A stretch of DNA of 64,000 nucleotides from Laetmonice hystrix (lineage: Eukaryota), in NCBI GenBank assembly GCA_965235115.1, contig OZ249436.1, positions 38,628,001 through 38,692,000 on the forward strand. The letters are read 5' to 3'. Position numbers and translations under genes: made by a program. The notes under the pieces are model-generated. The model was given only the letters and a program-made list of their open reading frames with translations, had not been told where the DNA came from and ran no database searches. This document shows positions 3,001 to 29,690 of the stretch, one piece after another (the stretch's first letter is position 1; each line of letters opens with the position of its first letter).

Positions 3001-6000
3001 AGCAAGCTCACGTAGGTAAAGGTGTGCAGAGTAAGCCATGTGGTCCTGTTGTTGGTGGACACATAAAGTCTGTCAGTCTGCTTCCCTATGTCCTGTCCAA
3101 TCTCGATATGGTACACGCAATCCTACAGTAAGAGAATAACATATTAATGACAAGGCCTTGATGAAGGGTTAAAGAGTATAATATTTTAAATGCTGAGTGA
3201 TGGACGTAGTCTAGGGCCTAGTATAGAATCGGTGCCATCGATGAGTTCAGACTTTACCTTTCGTTTCTGGAGTAGGTTGACGGAGATCTGTGTCTGGTTT
3301 TCGGTCATGGCGATTCCGTTACACACGCTCACCACGCCGAGAAGGTCGAGATAGAGATAATGCTGAAACACGGATACAAGACTGCACGTCGGAGAGGGTC
3401 AAGATAAAGATAATGCTGCAACACGGATACAAGACAGTACGTCAGAGAGGGTCGAGATAAAGGTAATGCTGCAACACGGATACAAGACTGCACGTCGGAG
3501 AGGGTCAAGATAAAGATAATGCTGCAACACGGATACAAGACTGCACGTCGGAGAGGGTCAAGATAAAGATAATGCTACAACACGGATACAAGACTGCACG
3601 TCGGAGAGGGTCAAGATAAAGATAATGCTACAACACGGATACAGACAGCACGTCAGAGAGGGTCGAGATAAAGATAATGCTACAACATGGATACAAGACT
3701 GCACGTCGGAGAGGGTCAAGATAAAGATAATGCTGCAACACGGATGCAGACAGCTTGTCAGAGAGGGTCAAGGAAAAAGGACGGTCGTGGCAGCTATCCA
3801 ATCAACAACTTCCTTAAAAAATACCTTTCATCGATAACAAATGGGACAACAAATTCCAGCAGTGTGCTAACTTAGATATTGCATTTGCCAGGCATGGTTC
3901 CGTGCGTTATGCCCTAAATAAAGTCTCGGCTACGCCTCGATCCTATGCCCTAAATGAAGTCGTAGACACAATAGTGAAAGTAAATATTAAAATATACATT
4001 TTTAAAAATGTGTTTTATTAGCACCTTTTGTTCTCTCAGAAGACCGATGATATCGTCAATCTGTTTCCCGGTGATACGATCCACAATTTTCCGATTGTCC
4101 CGGAGCAGTTCGATCAACATCTGACAACTCTGCAGCCCTACTCCACCCTACACACCAAAACAATGACGCCACTTTAAACTGAAAATGATCATTCATCTAG
4201 AATGACACCTAGGCCTATAGCCATAGTTATATCGCCTGCTGAAAGACATTGCTGAAACAACCTCTTAGTGAGCAGGCTATCTCGATGTGACTTTGATAAC
4301 ATTAAGTGTGTACATATATGGTTCCAGTAAACCGAGTATCGAGTACGCTTTATTCTGAAATTCCATATTGAATTGGGGTATATTAATAAAACATAGATTT
4401 GTGGATGGGAATAGATTATCAGTACTTACCTTTGCCAAGAGCGTAGAGAAGAAGAAGACAATATATTTGGCCATGTACAAGGCATTCTTCTTACTACGTC
4501 CCATCACGTAGCAGTGCAGAACCTCGTATATGGAGCGGAACACCTAGGATTCGCAGGCATGAGATATGTTACATATTTATCACTGAGGTGTTCTTATAGA
4601 TAAGCATGACCAGGCTGGCAGTATCTGGCAGGTTTTTCACAGACAGTACCGTTAATTTTCTGTAACAGCACAAACCTGGGTGAAGTGAGTAAAATCCTTG
4701 AGGCCTTCATGTAACGGCGATCTCAGCAGGTCGACCATCACGTCGACTAACTAATAAAAACAACCAAAAAGGGGAAATTAATAATAAAATAAGGGATGTC
4801 AGGAATTTAAAATGGCATTCAGATATGAATTTAGAAAGGAATATTCCTAATTTCGTTAGTTCTTTTCACACATAATTATACAATCGCAATTGCGGCTCAG
4901 GACAGGGGCTAGAATCCCCTTACGTGTACATTTTTTTGTACTTTTTTCCTTTTTTTCTCATCGAACTTTCTTCCCCTTCTTTTTCTGTTCCCCCTTGGAC
5001 CTCTTTTCAAAAGTCCTGGCCCCGCCCATTTTATACAGTATGTTGCTTTAATGATTGGCAAGATTTTAAAGTATCATAGGGTTACCCTCAGATTCCGTAA
5101 GAGTTTCTGGTGATCCTTCTTCGGTGTACCCTTCTCCATGATGAAGGTTTTCAGTTCATGTAACGTCTACGAATAAAAAGAACATCGGTATGACTATGAG
5201 AGTATTACACTGATCAAGGCAGCCGGAACCGGGTGAGGGGTCATGGGGAACCCCTCCCCCCCCCCTCCAAAAAACCCTTTCAACCAAAAAAAAAAGGATA
5301 GTGTGTCATAATTTTGACTATCAATCTGACAGGCGCTACCCGTGTCAGCTCCGGATCCCACTTCCGATTGAGTATATATCACTTAAATTTTCCAACAGTT
5401 TATAAATATACAATATGGAAAGAAAGAAAATAATGTGTCCGCCAGCTAACATTTCTGCTGAACTTACGAAATGTATACTTTACAGTAATAGTTTGAGTCT
5501 TCCAATTTTAGTTTGAGGTGACCTTGTCTTAGAGAAGAAGAGAGAAACATGCTTACACCAATGATGCTCTGCGTCGACCTTGCATTCAGAAATACGTTTT
5601 CTTCCTTTCTCTATAAGCAAAAAATACACAATAATTCACAGCAGCAGCAAATGGGAGAGAAGTTTGTTAAGTGACTCTGAGGAACTGTTAACGCCAGAGG
5701 GCCGTTAGTGGGACGTACTGCCTGCGTGAGGTCCTTGAGGAAGGGCACCATCCCCGCCACGTAGTTAAAGTTGAACCAGTCTGAGGGCGCCACCTTCTGG
5801 ATGGTGTAGGCGTCAGGGTAACGTCGGGAACTGCTGCCTATCACCTGTACACGGGAAAATATACTGACATAACTCAACTCGGCTTCTTCCCAGGGACAGG
5901 CTTTATTTTGATGTCACTTTTTAATCGTTTACGATCTGTGTAATAGTTTTTAGGCGTTTCCCGTACTTGTATGCACTTTCCTTTTACTAATCATCAAATT

Positions 6001-9000
6001 GATATTTAGATTTATAAAAATGTTATCGTTATTTAAGGGTCTTACCTTCAGCAACGTGGCTCCATCCCATCTCAAGGCGTGCAGGTCGGAGCTCTCCTCA
6101 TCTTGGCACTGCTGACGTTCATACGTATCATCTGTTAACCACAGTTCGAATGGTTAGAAACTCAATTTGTCATGTACGTATCATAATTAACCACAGTTCG
6201 ACTGGTAAAACTCAATTTGTCATGTACGTATCATCTGTTAACCACAGTTCTAACAGTCAGAAACAATATCATTTGTTAACCACAGTTCTAACAGTCATAG
6301 AGCCAATATCATGTGATATAGGTAACCACAGTTCTAACAGTCGGAGACCCGATTTGTTAGGTATGTATTATCTGGCATCCACAGTTCTAACGGTCAGACA
6401 CACAATAGACCATGTATCCGGTGTATATCATCTATCAACCATATCAAAATAACCCGACAGACTCTTGGCGTTTCCTTGGTACCAGTATTACTAGCATTGA
6501 CTTTAGAGGAACTTATTCATCAAGAGACATTATTCATCATTCTTCTCTTTCCTCCTTCTCTGTTGTTATAAGTGTTTTGATATTGCGCACCTATCGGTCC
6601 ATGCAACCAACACCCCGATAAGACATGCTCAATGCGGCAGTCACTTCCACAACTGATATTCATATTCTGTGGTTTCTGAAAGCATTCAATGGGGAAAACA
6701 TATCAATTTAGAGCATTTCTTAAACCTAATGGATAAACACACTTTCGCTTACTTACGATTTACTTATGACTGTGTGTCTTCTCAAATTTAGGGTAATTAT
6801 AGAGTCTGACCTGGGATAGCGAGTACACCCTGAACACTGCCCTGGGGTCACAGCCGTCGGTGGTCAGCGCCACCTGGCCGTCGTCACTGATATACAGGTA
6901 TCGACGTGTGGTCATGTGACGAAACCTGACCGAGTCGTCCCAGTGGAGAACACGTCCGTCTAGGATACTGGTGGCGGCCTCTAGCTGCCAGTACGTGATA
7001 CCAGAACGAGGTTTGTACAGGGTACGAGGGTCGTTCGGGTTGATTTCACGCACCCGCAGGTGAACTGTGGAAAGGAAGGGAATAATTATGTTATTATGTG
7101 AAAAATTTGAGATCCGGCGGAAGCTTGAGAGTGAAGTAATGTGATTGGGAACCAGACAGGAAATGATCAGTGATGATTCTTTGATTTGTGAGGAATCGGC
7201 ACTGAAAAACAGTAAACATTATTACTCATGGGTGAATTGATAAAATTGTTTCTTACTTTTATACTTCATTCATTCTGCATGTAATTCTGCATTCATATAA
7301 ATATAGCTTTTCAACACATGCATCCAAATTATATGTATGGATTAACATTTCTCGTAAAAATGTACAGATATAGAGTAAGTGATATATTAGGTACCATTTT
7401 CTGTTGGTTCCTCCCCAAAGACTCCTTCCGCTGTCAGGAATGCTTCGATGTCTTTGTGAAACAGGCGTACCACATGACCGCCCTGCAGAGATAAACCACT
7501 CGTCAGACCAGCGACTACATTCTCGGTAACATTTATTAAAGTGTAGCCAATTTATTTCTTCACTTCTTTCTTAAAGTACTCTTGTGTATATTTCAGCTAA
7601 AATACATATTGATGTTATTCGAGACTTACCCTGACCAGTCCCTCCGTGTCATGATCAGGACTGGAGTGTTTGACCCAGGTAAAACTGGAACGATCTACTC
7701 CAAGGTTGAGTTCCGAGCTGCCAGAACATGAAGAGGGAAAAATATTCAATATTTGTTTGTTTTTTTTTTAAAAAAAGGTCTCAACTGATGTGAGAGAGAC
7801 AAGTATCAATGATGGCTTCAAGAAGACACATTGAGAATCCATACCCGAATGTGAAGTGGTCAATCTGGTAAGGGTCACTGGCGTGTAAGTAGCATCCAGC
7901 TGATTTTGCACTCTCAAAGGTGACCTGGTCGTAATTTTCAATCTGGAATACAAAACAACACGGCTTAAAAAAAGTCCTTATTTCTTATCATCAAAAATTA
8001 GAATGAGCTTAGACATCGAGTTAACAAAAGTCATTATGATATAAGTTTACTTACGAATTCTCCCTCCACCTTCACCTTGTAGCTCGGCAGGATTCTGAAG
8101 AGGGCGTTCTTGGAGGTGTGAGACTCGAGGCTAACCTGAAATACAACATACAAAAATACGATAAACATGAACACTTTTTGGACGGAAAAGGTAGCGGTAA
8201 TAAGGAACAAGCTAACCTACCATCATTTTACTTTTGTCGACATCACTCGTCTCCGACGTGCTCACGTGGATGAACTTGTTGGTGAACATGTGCCGGAGCT
8301 AGAAGGTAAGGTCAGCAATCGGTAAGTTCGGAATGTTTACAAGCTGTGTGTCAAGACATAATGTATTGGTAGTGTCCTCTGATAGCAACAAAACACTCCC
8401 TACCTGAATGATGTCTTCGGATAACAACAGAACGCTCCTTACCTGGATGGTGTAACAACAGAACGCTCCTTACCTGGATGGTGTAACAACAGAACGCTCC
8501 TTACCTGGATGGTGTAGCAACAGAACGCTCCTTACCTGGATGGTGTAACAACAGAACGCTCCGTACCTGGATGGTGTAACAACAGAAACTCCTTACCTGG
8601 ATGGCGTAACAACAGAGCGCTCCTTACCATGGATGCATGGTGTCCCCTGTTAACAACAACGTGCTCCTTACCTGGATAGTTTTCCTGATAACAACAGAAC
8701 GCCCCTTACCTGGATGGTGTCCCTGGATAACAACAGAACGCTCCTTACCTGGATGGTGTCCCTGGATAACAACAGAACGCTCCTTACCTGGATGATGTCC
8801 CTGATAACAACAACACGCTCCTTACCTGGACGGTGTCCCCAACAACAGAACGCTCCTTACCTGGATGGTGTCCCCAACAACAGAACGCTCCTTACCTGGA
8901 TGGTGTCCCTGGATAACAACGCTCCTTACCTGGATGGTGTCCCTGATAACAACAACACACTCCTTACCTGGATGGTATCTCCGTAGCGGACCCGTTTCCC

Positions 9001-11773
9001 TTGAAGCCGGATCTGTTCAGCCTCGTTGTCCTGCCGTTCGCACTCAGCTGCCACCTGCAGGATAAGTTCATCATCACCGAACAATGATGATCGGTGTTGC
9101 CGACCGAGAGCGCACATATTAATAAAACAGACGCCCGATATTGTATAGGTAAGGCCGACTATTTGTTATCTTCATAGCATACACTGTCCATTGATTTATC
9201 TTTTTAACAATTTTTGACTGGGTTTTCTTGGTAATGAAGAAAGTGGTACAGATGGCACAGATAAAAAATAAAGAAAAGTGCGCTGACCTTGGCTACTGCC
9301 AGGGCCTTCTTGAGGTCCTCGTCATCCGGGTAGTCTCCATGGGCCTCCAGCAGATTCTTGTACTTTTTGGTCAGTTTGTACCGGTTCTGGGACACCACCC
9401 GGAATGTTACGGCTGTAAGTAAAGTTAAGAACGTCTTGGTTAGTTTGTACCGGTTCTGGGACACCACACGGAATGTTACGGCTGCAAGTAAAGTTAAGAA
9501 TCTAATGGTTAGTTTGTACAGGTTCTGGGACACCACACGGAATATGACGGCTACAAGTAAAGTTAAGAATCTATTGGTTAGTTTGTACCGGTTCTGGGAC
9601 ACCACCCGGAATGTGACGGCTGCAAGTAAAGTTAAGAATCTAATGGTTATTTTGTACCGGTTCTGGGACACCACACGGACTGTGACGGCTGCAAGTAAAG
9701 TTCAGAACCTCTTGGTTGGTTTGTACCGGTTCTGGGACACCACACGGAATGTGACGGCTGCAAGTAAAGTTCAGAATTACTTGGTTAGTTTGTACCGGTT
9801 CTGGGACACCACACGGACTGTGACGGCTGCAAGTAAAGTTAAGAAGTTACGAAACTCTTTGTTGGTTTGTACCGGTTCTGGGATACCACACGGAATGTGA
9901 CGGCTGTAAGTAAAGTTAAGAACGTTTTAGTTAGTTTGTACCGGTTCTGGGACACCACACGGAAGGTGACGGCTGTAAGTAAAGTTAAGAACGTTTTGGT
10001 TAGTTTGTACCGGTTCTGGGACACCACACGGAATGTGACGGCTGCAAGTAAAGTTACGAAACTCTTGGTTGGTTTGTTCTGGGACACCACACGGAATGTG
10101 ACGGCTGCAAGTAAAGTTACGAAACTCTTGGTTGGTTTGTTCTGGGACACCACACGGAATGTGACGGCTGCAAGTAAAGTTACGAAACTCTTGGTTGGTT
10201 TGTTCTGGGACACCACACGGAATGTGACGGCTGCAAGTAAAGTTAAGAATCTATTGGTTAGTTTGTACCGGTTCTGGGACACCACACGGAATGCTACGGC
10301 TGCAAGTAAAGTTACGAATCTCTTGGTTGGTTTGTACCGGTTCTGGGACACCACACGGAATGTGACGGCTGCAAGTAAAGTTAAGAATCTATTGGTTAGT
10401 TTGTACCGGTTCTGGGACACCACACGGAATGCTACGGCTGCAAGTAAAGTTACGAATCTCTTGGTTAGTTTGTACCGGTTCTGGGATACCCAGGCACGTA
10501 CCCAGGATTGTGCTTAGAGGGGGGTTCCATCAGGACGAGAGGGCTGCCCGGGGGCTACCTGTGTTTTTGCACCAGTCGACCTGGGGACCGGAGGGGGCCG
10601 GGGGGGGGGTTCCGGAACCCCTGGAACCCCCCCCCCTGGGTACGTGCCTGATACCACACGGAATGTGACGGCTGTAAGTAAAGTTAAGAACGTTTTGGTT
10701 AGTTTGTACCGGTTCTGGGACACCACACGGAATGTGACGGCTGTAAGTAAAGTTAAGCACGTTTTGGTTAGTTTGTACCGGTTCTGGGACACCACACGGA
10801 CTGTGACGGCTGCAAGTAAAGTTAAGAACCTCTTGGTTAGTTTGTACCGGTTCTAGGACACCACTCGGAATGTGTTGGCTGCAAGTAAAGTTAAGAACCT
10901 CTTGGTTGGTTTGTTCTGGGACACCACACGGAATGTGCCGGCTGCAAGTAAAGTTACGAAACTCTTGGTTGGTTTGTTCTGGGACACCACACGGAATGTG
11001 ACGGCTGCAAGTAAAGTTAAAAATCTATTGGTTGGTTTGTACCGGTTCTGGGATACCACACGGAATGTGACGGCTGTAAGTAAAGTTAAGAACGTTTTGG
11101 TTAGTTTGTACCGGTTCTGGGACACCACACGGAATGTGACGGCTGCAAGGAGTGTGGAGGAGGGCGGTCAAGGTTGGCCGTATACGCTAGTGCGGGAAGG
11201 GCTACGGGTGGGGATTATGTACAGGGTAAGACCTACTGCCCTCAACCGAAAGTATCACCTAATCCACCCTGTTCCTGAGGACAATCTCTATATTGTTTGG
11301 AAAAGAAAGGTTGTTTTAAGAGTTTCTATATAAGGGCATTCACACTAAACTCCATTCATTTTCGTCTTTTGTTCGTATTCGATACAATAGGGCTGACATA
11401 AAGCACTCCTCATTCCGAACAAGGTTTACATAATTCAACTTAAATGGGAAATATTATAATAAAAACTGAGGTCTCGATATCATGTTGTTTCTGCACTTAC
11501 CGTGAATATTAGGAATCCCAACTGGACAACCACGGTCCTGCCCCGTGTACACAAATAATCCACTTTTGGCTATGCTGATAAAAAAAAGAAAATATATATA
11601 TTATTATCCAGTATCATGCATGGTTTTTACTGAAAGAAGTATCTCTTATTGGAAAGTCGTAGCTTATAGTAGAGTATTTAGGTAACTAACCTGGTCTTGT
11701 CACTGTTGACGTAGCCACCTGTGTCTTCACAATAGAGACATATGATATCGCCCATACACATGAACTCCGCCAT
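1..11773 (-). CDS. ITPR-like: Divergent inositol 1,4,5-trisphosphate receptor-like (IP3R/RyR superfamily) Ca2+-release channel, N-terminal ~989 aa (suppressor/MIR/RIH region), 30 coding exons, 3' end outside the window
   Basis: Hand-spliced exons, GT-AG and phase-consistent: 11691-11773 (ATG; MAEFMCMGDIICLYCEDTGGYV), 11501-11574, 9288-9412 (FRVVSQNRYK), 8968-9054 (RVRYGDTIQ), 8221-8298 (LRHMFTNKFIHV), 8055-8135, 7845-7942, 7630-7717, 7395-7482 (GGHVVRLFHK), 6811-7064 (WDDSVRFRHMTTRRYL), 6591-6675, 6046-6131, 5719-5844, 5557-5610, 5086-5166 (HQKLLRN), 4676-4750, 4430-4543, 4025-4147 (LLRDNRKIVDRIT), 3258-3362 (YLDLLGVVSVCN), 3012-3122, 2653-2730 (RQLALYKKLC), 2252-2384 (LPDRIRATFCDL), 2016-2125, 1784-1900, 1375-1510, 914-1013, 734-788, 493-602, 133-229, 1-16 (partial). 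The motifs are collinear with remembered IP3R motifs (FLHIGDICSLY, FKLCPMNRY, YGNVIQLLH, GGDVVRLFH, RQKLMRE, LLHNNRKLLE, FLDYLSDLC, QLNLFARMC, LPYDLRASFC). Confidence 0.93.
1037..1190. repeat. 17-bp tandem repeat (GTAAGTCATTCAGTGAC) x ~9, intronic
   Basis: Near-perfect copies read directly; the array ends about 22 nt from the exon-26 acceptor (1014-1015). Confidence 0.95.
3345..3772 (-). repeat. 53-bp tandem repeat x ~8 built from the exon-19 acceptor and exon start
   Basis: Minus-strand unit ...cttgtatccgtgttgcAG|CATTATCTTTATCTTGACC; AG dinucleotides at 3363, 3416, 3469, 3522, 3575, 3628, 3680, 3733. Confidence 0.93.
6120..6395 (-). repeat. Degenerate ~45-52-bp tandem repeat containing the exon-12 acceptor
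   Basis: Recurrent TAACCACAGTTC core; full copy of gttaacAG|ATGATACGTA at 6235 in addition to the used acceptor at 6132. Confidence 0.8.
8395..8978 (-). repeat. 31-39-bp tandem repeat x ~17 built from the exon-4 donor site
   Basis: Minus-strand unit GTAAGGAGCGTTCTGTTGTT(ATCCAGGG)ACACCATCCAG; the junction matches the true exon-4 end ACCATCCAG|GTAAGG at 8968. Confidence 0.95.
9368..11148 (-). repeat. 69-bp (63-bp variant) tandem repeat x ~24 built from the exon-3 acceptor and first ~47 nt of the exon
   Basis: Unit ttcttaactttacttgcAG|CCGTCACATTCCGTGTGGTGTCCCAGAACCGGTACAAACTAACCAA; 69-nt spacing between AGs at 9413 and 9482; explains the repetitive ORFs at 9204-11333. Confidence 0.96.
10491..10650. 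mobile_element. 160-bp MITE (hAT5-like, 5-bp TSD) inserted in the 69-bp array
   Basis: Perfect TIR CAGGCACGTACCCAGG...CCTGGGTACGTGCCTG; TSD ATACC on both sides. Confidence 0.92.
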
Positions 11774-12424: not shown

Positions 12425-13347
12425 TAATACCCTAGTCACACTAGAGGCGGAATGAGCCAGAATGCTGTCGGAATGAAAATTCTTGGTATATTCCTGGATA
12501 TTCGAAGTGCATTCTAAAAGTTCTGACTGCATTCTGAGTGCATTCCAAATATTCGGGCCCATTCTTGTGGCCGGCCCGAATGTTTTGCTCATGCTCAAAA
12601 CTTTCGAGGTGCATTCGAAGGGGAAAAATATCGAACGGCATTCGAAGTGTATTCTAAATGCACTCTGACTGCATTCTAAATATTCTTACGGCATTCCAAC
12701 AGCATTCGAAACATTCTGATCGCATTTGAGGCAGAATCGAAACGGCAAGCCACTTCAAATCCTGCCAGAATGTCCCGAATGCGCCTCGAATGAGCCGGAA
12801 TGCACCTCGAATGCATCTCGATTGCTGCCGGAATCTATACTCGGACATTCGTGTTACATTCTAAGTACATTCGAAGTGCATTCTAAGTGTTCGAGCTGCA
12901 TTCTGTTTGAATATTTGGACGTTCGAACCATATTCGGCAGCCATTCCGGGAGCGTTCTGACTGCATTTGAGGTTAATTCGTACAGCATGCGAGGCACCTT
13001 CCATCCAGACATCGGGCGGTATTTGGGCAGCAATCGAACCGCACTCGTACGGCATTCGAGGTGCATTCTAAATATTCTGACTGCATTCTAACAATATTCT
13101 AAATATTCCTACTGTGTTCCAACTACATTCAAGCTGCATTCGAGCTAATACACCCGGAATGTGCAAGAATCATTCGAGGCGGGTTCGAAGCGCATTCTAA
13201 GTATTCGAACGCTATTCTTACAAAGCTGTAAGAATTTTGGTCAATTTGAAATTCCCTCCCGAATGTGACACGAATTTTGAGAATTCTCCATTCCGGCTGG
13301 TTCTGCTTGATTCCTGCTGATTCCGAATAAGTGTGACGGGGGTATTA
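12425..13347. mobile_element. Non-autonomous DNA transposon rich in GCATTC/GAATGC/TTCGAA motifs (possibly Harbinger-like)
   Basis: Inverted termini TAATACCCTAGTCACACT...AGTGTGACGGGGGTATTA; interior made of dense short motif repeats in both orientations. Confidence 0.8.
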
Positions 13348-28019: not shown

Positions 28020-29690
28020 CCTCCAGTGGTTCTTGGCGAGGATTGTTGTATGTAAGTTCTAGTTGTAGTGGTTCTGGGCGGTGAGGTTCTGTGTATAGGG
28101 CTGTCCAGGCATTGGTTCTGGGCGATGAGGATGTGTGTAGGGGTGTCCAGGCATTGGTTCTGGGTGTGGGTGTTGTGTGTAGGGTTATTCAGACATTGGT
28201 TTTGAGAGTGGGTGCTGTGTGTTGGGTTGTCCAGGCATTGTTTCTAAGCGTGGGGGTTGTGTGCGTGGGTGTCCAGGCATTGGTTCTGGGCGTGGGTGCT
28301 GTGTGTAAGGTTGTTTAGACATTGGTTCTGGTCGTGGGTGCTGTGTGTTGGGTTTTCCAGGCATTGGTTCTGAGCGCGGGTGCTGTGTGTAGAGGTGTCC
28401 AGGCATTGGTTCTCAGCGTGGGTGCTGTGTGTAGGTGTGTCCAGGCATTGGTTCTGAGCGTGGGCGTTGTGCGTAGGGTTGTCCAGGCATTGGTTCTGAG
28501 CGTGGGTGTTGAGTGTAGGGTTATCCAGGCATTGGTTCTGAGCGTGGGTGTTGAGTGTAGGGTTGTCCAAACATTGGTTCTGGACGTGGGCGTTGTGTGT
28601 AGTATTGTCCAGGCATTGGTTCTGGGCGTGGGTGTTGTGTGCAGAGGTGTCCAGGCATTGGTTCTCAGCGCGGGTGTAGTGTTCCAGTGGCGATGGTTCT
28701 GAGTGAGGATATTGTGTGTGTGGGGGTGTCCAGGCATTGGTTCTGAGCGCGGGCGTTGTGTTAGTATTGTCCAGGCATTGGTTCTGAGCGTGGGTGTTGA
28801 GTGTAGGGTTGTCCAAACATTGGTTCTGGACGTGGGCGTTGTGTGTAGTATTGTCCAGGCATTGGTTCTGGGCGTGGGTGTTGTGTGTAGGGGTGTCCGG
28901 GCGTTAGTTCTAGGCGTGGGTGATGTGTGTTGGGTTGTCCAGGCACTGGTTCTAGGCGTGGGTGCTGTGTTGGGTTGTCCAAATATTGGTTCTGAGCGTG
29001 CGTGCTGTGTGTAGGGTTGTCCAGGCACTGGTTCTGGTCGTGGGTGTTGTGTGTAGGGTTGTCCAAACATTGGTTCTGGGCGTGGGTGTTGTGTGTAGGT
29101 GTGTCCGGGCGTTAGTTCTAGGCGTGGGTGCTGGTGTTGGGTTGTCCAGGCACTGGTTCTAGGCGTGGGTGATGTGTGTTGGGTTGTCCAGGCACTGGTT
29201 CTAGGCGTGGGTGCTGTGTGTTGGGGTGTCCAAACATTGGTTCTGAACGTGGGTGCTGTGTGTAGGTGTGTCCAGGCATTGGTTCTGAGCGTGGGTGCTG
29301 GGTGTAGGGTTGTCCAAACATTGGTTCTGAGCGTGGGTGTTGTGTGTAGGGCTGTCCAAGCATTGGTTCTGGGCGTGGGTGTTGTGTGTAGGTGTGTCCG
29401 GGCGTTAGTTCTAGGCGTGGGTGCTGTGTGTTGGGTTGTCCAGGCACTGGTTCTGAGCGTGGGTGCTGTGTGTAGGTGTGTCCAGGCATTGGTTCTGGAT
29501 GTGGGTGTTGTGTGTAGTTGTGTCCAGGCATTGGTTCTGAGCGTGGGTGTTGAGTGTAGGGTTGTCCACGCATTGGTTCTGAGCGTGGGTGTTGTGTGTA
29601 GGTGTGTCCAGGCATTGGTTCTGAGCGTGGGTGCTGGGTGTAGGGTTGCAGTGGCGATGGTTCTGAGTGAGGATGTCGTGTCTGGGTAAC
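28020..29690. repeat. 42-bp minisatellite x ~38
   Basis: Consensus CCAGGCATTGGTTCTGAGCGTGGGTGTTGTGTGTAGGGTTGT; minus strand translates as repeated QPYTQHPRSEPMPG. Confidence 0.95.

Follow-up and report, generated by a model that had tools for sequence, protein, structure and literature searches.

A mirage-type minisatellite spans the exon 3 acceptor of an ITPR-like gene in 24 copies, of which probably only the last is used for splicing

Canestro et al. are said to have given the original description of the lancelet Adh3 'mirage' in 2002. Mirages are minisatellites made of tandem copies of exon-intron boundaries, and the accessible parts of two papers place them in the lancelet genes BflGb6, BflGb9, Adh3, troponin C and PGBD5 (PMC3087553, PMC3902484), the PGBD5 paper giving further cases. 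For BflGb6, the accessible text of Ebner et al. describes the same acceptor geometry as that reported here, with homogenised inner units and divergent edges, and RT-PCR that suggests normal splicing (PMC3087553). A human relative of sorts is the VNTR in intron 18 of ABCA7, a donor-bearing repeat of which one unit leaks into some transcripts and whose length tracks exon skipping, according to the part of that report available (PMC5954066). A literature search that covered few subscription journals returned no mirages from annelids and nothing relevant on in-frame acceptor minisatellites in invertebrates.

Here we describe a tandem array at the exon 3 acceptor of an ITPR-like gene, on the minus strand of the window (the whole stretch of DNA analysed, 64,000 nt long). 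We consider it likely that this is a splice-site-spanning minisatellite of the mirage type, that it is neutral, and that splicing goes to its last copy only. Such an array is a natural test of how the spliceosome picks one of 24 near-equal acceptors.

As in the BflGb6 mirage, the array consists of head-to-tail copies of the 3' end of an intron and the 5' start of the following exon. Its unit size lies within the 10-160 bp that the accessible reports give for amphioxus mirages, with which it also shares an AG kept in the copies, identical inner units between divergent edges (cluster boundaries being excluded from homogenisation in the part of the BflGb6 account available, PMC3087553), and several arrays per gene. 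It has 24 copies, whereas BflGb6 has 3-6 in the same partial account. It also departs from amphioxus mirages in that its tail matches the 5' flank exactly over 7 nt only, in its four open in-frame upstream copies and MITE-like insertion, and in its host, which is not a lancelet, judging by best matches (Owenia or Capitella for three of nine family genes, a placement that is not firm). The ABCA7 VNTR is likewise an intronic tandem repeat bearing a real splice site, with a neighbouring copy that is usable; as far as its accessible description goes, it differs in bearing a donor, in its 25-bp out-of-frame unit and in a measured length effect, whereas the exon 3 array bears an acceptor and is known from sequence alone.

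The host gene is, by its predicted domains, a member of the ITPR/RyR superfamily, in a divergent invertebrate ITPR-like subfamily. It shares with the IP3 receptor/ryanodine receptor superfamily a MIR domain match on exon 10, detected directly and above the cut-off, and homologues about 50% identical that are named ITPR-like and carry the family domains (PF08709, PF02815, PF01365, PF08454 and, mostly, PF00520). RIH was matched directly only below the cut-off and on one exon, and the assignment of PF08709, RIH and the C-terminal channel comes through homologues aligned to the gene. By identity the gene is not the orthologue of canonical ITPR, and IP3 binding and channel activity are putative. 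Through a homologue, the head of exon 3 aligns with the CLFKVCPMNRY stretch of the ITPR2 N-terminal domain, which we take to be the 'suppressor' domain. A preliminary description of this DNA had placed exon 3 in an N-terminal domain, and this is the N-terminal IP3R/RyR domain, by PF08709 in the homologues and the homologue-ITPR2 alignment. The exons and intron around the array, all on the minus strand, are as follows.

11691..11773, minus strand: coding part of exon 1 from the ATG (22-exon model; matches the paralogues)
11501..11574, minus strand: exon 2, ending in phase 1 at a GTAAGT donor (22-exon model)
9413..11500, minus strand: intron 2, 2088 nt with the last acceptor and 358 nt with the first (splice-form computation)
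9288..9412, minus strand: exon 3, 125 nt; no other reading fits the paralogues and homologues (gene model, alignments)
8968..9054, minus strand: exon 4; a donor array (8381-8981) comes next (gene model, TRF)

The 22-exon model runs from 11773 to 2252 with GT-AG introns and, with the last acceptor, has an open frame of 742 codons; the gene continues past the window, and 38 exon cores reach homologue residue 2624. Among 35 variant places examined, a set that excludes two array rows, seven listed rows lying upstream of the gene or inside the inserted element, and 45 further rows, all five exonic substitutions are synonymous, and all seven indels tested are intronic, because of which the gene looks to be under constraint. 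The variants come from three runs of one sample, which may be the source sample of the assembly; the runs cover introns and behave as DNA.

Within the exon 3 acceptor region, 24 acceptor copies lie head to tail on the minus strand, from the AG at 11144-11143 to the AG at 9414-9413, each preceded by YAG (CAG in 23 copies, TAG in one). TRF reports the array with a period of 69 and scores of 1651 and 735, a repeat far beyond chance. The unit joins about 46 nt of the exon 3 head to 23 nt of the end of intron 2 (the acceptor tail), so that a true exon-intron boundary of the gene lies inside it, one that is kept in all eight paralogues.

9367..11149, minus strand: tandem array, 23 units and then the true exon 3 head (TRF, unit alignment, genome search)
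11143..11175, minus strand: flank of copy 1, with a TTGAC motif, a C-rich tract and CAG; single copy in the genome
10853..10855, minus strand: TAG in unit 5, met on reading from copies 1-5 (translation)
10491..10650, minus strand: 160-nt MITE-like element in unit 8 (inverted repeats, target duplication, contig ends, depth)
9827..9903, minus strand: unit 17, 77 nt after an 8-nt gain, a frameshift for copies 1-17 (unit alignment)
9702..9779, minus strand: in-frame stops in units 18 and 19 (translation; open reading frame 9204-9701)
9413..9690, minus strand: units 20-23, four in-frame stop-free upstream acceptors, each adding 23 aa if used (translation)

The 23 units measure 69 nt (16 units), 63 nt (five), 77 nt (one) and 234 nt (one). 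Units 1, 7 and 15 are identical to one another, as are units 3, 12, 13 and 14 and units 9 and 11, so that the interior has been homogenised. All 11 genome matches to the unit fall inside the array itself and none elsewhere, in a search that skips very common words. With a boundary-spanning unit, a kept AG, a homogenised interior from which the edges are excluded and a unit specific to the locus, the array is an ordinary further member of the lancelet-type mirages. As regards copy number between alleles, contigs break at the array edges and none spans the array.

Much of the preliminary description holds at this level: the most upstream AG has a tract of its own, unlike that of the other units; reading from it meets a TAG at 10855-10853; the last AG yields the intact 125-nt exon 9412-9288; and the pyrimidine tract and CTAAC serving that last AG are repeat-unit sequence, the CTAAC lying about 28 nt upstream in the exon-derived part of the preceding unit. 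The four acceptors just upstream (9690, 9621, 9552 and 9483) are in frame and free of stops, each adding 23 aa, as it stated. Its '~24 frame-preserving copies' are right in number and wrong in frame, given the 77 nt of unit 17 and the 17 of 23 upstream copies that are out of frame. The 69- and 63-nt units it gave account for 16 and five of the 23 and omit those of 77 and 234 nt, and the exon it called split, copies of which are indeed present, is better described as having had its first 46 nt copied into the intron.

Only copies 20-24 leave the 742-aa frame open, and only copy 24 does so without adding an insertion. The remaining 19 of the 23 upstream copies lead to a premature stop (at 9779-9777 and 9704-9702 for copies 18 and 19), and it is the frameshift in unit 17 that throws 17 of the 23 out of the frame in which exon 3 ends. 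In each of the eight paralogues found in this genome, an AG stands at the corresponding position and phase, with a single exon head. The exon 3 acceptor site is covered by 53 of 57 full-length homologues, with insertions there of 0-4 aa, none of which repeats the NRY motif; one shorter homologue (P0010) has 21 extra residues just before the exon 3 strand, which may be a prediction error. It follows from the comparison with paralogues and homologues that only copy 24 gives the form of the family. Searches for a close relative lacking the array gave none among 70 candidates when exon 10 was the query (proteins of 148-2000 aa); a profile search returned 52 proteins, and the 51 that were aligned to the gene model are all at about 54% identity or less. 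With exon 3 plus one unit as query, two of three candidates were 56-57% identical, neither with the repeat.

The array may have begun with the duplication of a short segment spanning the junction of intron 2 and exon 3, and may have grown by slippage or unequal exchange, as the identical units on both sides of the inserted element suggest. After such a duplication the 5' edge would keep the intron's original flank, and the exon would stand complete at the 3' edge. On an acceptor matrix self-trained on 322 predicted acceptors of the family genes, which serves for rough ranking only, copy 1 scores 7.8 bits, copy 24 scores 9.1 and copies 2-23 score 5.7-9.2. The copies being about equal by local sequence, local strength cannot pick the last one, and context likely does. 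Copy 24 alone is followed by the whole exon and stands nearest the exon 3 donor, and would be the choice under exon definition. A transcript spliced to any of copies 1-19 would run into a premature stop, read directly from the sequence, and would probably be removed by nonsense-mediated decay. In the accessible part of a study of human splice sites, exon definition favours those competing sites that are nearest across the exon, and 3' sites of exons with a long upstream and a short downstream intron behave in this way (PMC9225289); exon 3 is preceded by an intron of at least 358 nt and followed by one of 233 nt. The same part of that study also reports that the overall upstream preference among competing human 3' sites persists, exon definition only lessening it (PMC9225289). 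Intron definition may be common here, favouring copy 1, because the median intron of the gene is 233 nt. Also against the use of the last copy only are that the last acceptor is no stronger than most upstream copies, that an exon made from copy 23 would be of normal size (194 nt), and that copy 1 here lacks the unit tract, as it does not in six of ten other readable acceptor arrays.

In a rival reading the allele would be leaky and sensitive to array length, a sizeable share of transcripts using upstream copies or skipping exon 3 and being destroyed, so that array length would tune output. Every copy scores as an ordinary acceptor, copy 1 would leave the shortest intron and introns in this gene are short, skipping of exon 3 would also lead to a stop (at codon 55), human ABCA7 offers a precedent in the part of its report available (PMC5954066), and eight paralogues could buffer the loss. 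Lancelet mirages are, however, reported without disturbance of splicing, and dozens of arrays in one gene family would be a heavy load if each leaked much; some leak would fit splicing mostly to the last copy as well, whereas the leaky allele needs a large one. We regard it as unlikely. Still less credit goes to the array being mis-assembled, or the gene being dead and its choice of acceptor irrelevant, which we hold to be highly improbable. Tandem arrays are hard to assemble, and no contig bridges this one; against mis-assembly, the three runs of one sample (again, possibly the source) contain both flanks, the variants among the units and the sequences peculiar to units 5 and 17, and against a pseudogene stand the frame open over 22 exons, the 38 exon cores reaching residue 2624 and the synonymous exonic variants.

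The preliminary description had also proposed a graded isoform series, in which use of copies 20-23 would add 23, 46, 69 or 92 aa to the N-terminal domain as a functional product; were the open upstream copies used, this would be a repeat-driven gain of isoforms in a calcium-release channel. In its favour, the four upstream acceptors are in frame and free of stops, the unit consensus is open in the exon frame, the tail loosely resembles the continuation of the exon (11 of 23 nt, a value reached by 1.6% of coding 23-mers), and the extra residues of P0010, if not a prediction error, lie just before the exon 3 strand. Four clean units in a row adjoining the exon are nevertheless expected by chance at about 0.35, five of the 23 units having a stop or frameshift, and are for that reason unremarkable. 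In the heads of the 16 units of 69 nt, 15 distinct substitutions comprise six synonymous, eight missense and one nonsense change, against 37:91:4 among possible changes; the synonymous share is thus 6/15 where 28% of possible changes are synonymous, and falls to 4/13 without two synonymous changes that are the exon's own alleles. The real exon 3 differs from the unit consensus at three positions, all synonymous. In the 63-nt units the near-invariant NRY motif has lost R-Y, unit 22 turns NRY into NLY, and conserved residues are altered in two of the four open units, 20 and 22 (F>V, L>I, T>I, R>L). As far as 15 variants allow, the upstream copies drift without coding constraint: in place of a kept frame and constrained codons they have a frameshift, stops, missense changes at conserved sites and a near-neutral synonymous share. 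Across nine family genes, array periods divisible by three are at the chance rate (41 of all 145 arrays, 11 of the 33 on the acceptor side and 9 of the 35 on the donor side), and none of the 53 homologues covering the site has the repeat. With the frame broken at unit 17, neutral-like unit heads, chance 3n periods and no insertion above 4 aa in the full-length homologues, the proposal is not supported, and we consider a functional series very unlikely.

What lies at the upstream edge of the array has a bearing on where the working acceptor came from. A native-looking acceptor there is no surprise, since any duplication that spans an acceptor leaves the original flank at that edge. Less usual is that the copy 1 flank agrees with the unit tail consensus exactly over the last 7 nt only (a GCAG-type tail) and at 14 of 23 positions overall. 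Among 33,156 intron windows with the same last 7 nt, 20% score as well by the matrix, on which the flank is average, 2.7% match its high pyrimidine count and 1.2% match this together with its AG-free zone, these three measures having been chosen after inspection. Of the 33 acceptor-side arrays in the gene family, 17 only abut an exon or hold fewer than 8 exon bases, five have evidently mis-called acceptors and 11, including the exon 3 array, are readable; six of the other ten keep the unit tract at the first copy, three are confounded by indels or compound units, and one resembles the exon 3 array. This exception is an array of period 41 on C6, whose first-copy flank is purine-rich, weak and unlike the unit. 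It follows that the copy 1 flank need not be an intact old acceptor. The C6 array has 13 copies, in a minus-strand ITPR-like gene near 9.02 Mb; its flank shares only 8 nt with the unit, and the AG is lost in three of the 13, so that it makes a useful case to set beside the exon 3 array where edges diverge.

A bolder reading is that the working acceptor was born inside the repeat and the old one retired 1.7 kb upstream, the nearest open copies giving a low-level ladder of +23 aa steps in the N-terminal domain of the channel. In the duplication, exon sequence from about nt 47-62 would have come to adjoin the final 7 nt of the former acceptor, the exon-derived stretch would have become a pyrimidine tract, and the exon-derived CTAAC a branch point. 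If true, this would be the replacement of a splice site by a minisatellite caught in place, and an exon-derived tract would show how a conserved exon can exchange its acceptor while the intron stays in place. The 16-nt core of the tail matches the 5' flank at 7 of 16 positions (reached by 19% of 324 predicted acceptors) and exon nt 47-62 also at 7 of 16 (reached by 8% of coding windows), so that judged by these matches neither flank nor exon continuation appears favoured over the other as its origin; within ~3-4 kb no convincing local template was found (two matches, with two mismatches in 12 nt). We think it distinctly unlikely that the working acceptor arose in this way.

Inserted in the 234-nt unit 8 is a high-copy element of 160 nt; it is bounded by 16-nt terminal inverted repeats, has a 5-nt target duplication and contains a stop. 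Loose contig ends fall exactly on its two ends (10491 and 10650), and its depth is hundreds of times that of the flanks. The inverted ends start with CAGG, and the element holds a strong donor-like site whose pairing with acceptor copy 8 could give a stop-containing pseudo-exon. A chain of mini-exons or recursive splicing was considered and rejected: the units hold no good donor (the best scores 3.9 bits, against 3.3-12.1 for 22 real donors), and the exon resulting from the sole strong donor, that in the inserted element, would hold a stop. Another very high-copy element lies upstream of exon 1 (~12430-13330), rich in short GAATG/CATTC words and with a depth several hundred times that of its flanks.

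The nine ITPR-like family genes contain 145 arrays (period of at least 15, at least 2.8 copies, score of at least 100), 33 at acceptor ends and 35 at donor ends. This is about three times a rough null of ~11 and ~12, respectively, rough in that exon cores come from tblastn, some exons are missed, and the rules for observed and simulated arrays are not identical. Arrays that touch boundaries being common in these nine genes, the exon 3 array is routine in this genome. The genome has at least nine ITPR-like genes, with loci at C1:38.51-38.57 Mb and C7:16.69-16.73 Mb, four on C6 and two on C10; one paralogue lies ~100 kb from the window on the opposite strand, and the position of intron 2 is kept in all family genes. 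Further arrays in the host gene itself include the donor array after exon 4 (8381-8981), arrays at 3339-3772, 6122-6264 and 1037-1190 (two at acceptors, preceding the exons that start at 3362 and 6131, and a 17-nt one in an intron, just upstream of an acceptor), and more beyond the window. Near 6.75-6.76 Mb on C10, an 8-kb array of ~190 copies of a 43-nt unit lies inside an ITPR-like gene. Elsewhere in the window, positions 28069-29648 hold a 42-nt array of ~38 copies, which is strongly strand-skewed and has an open frame of 463 aa on the minus strand.
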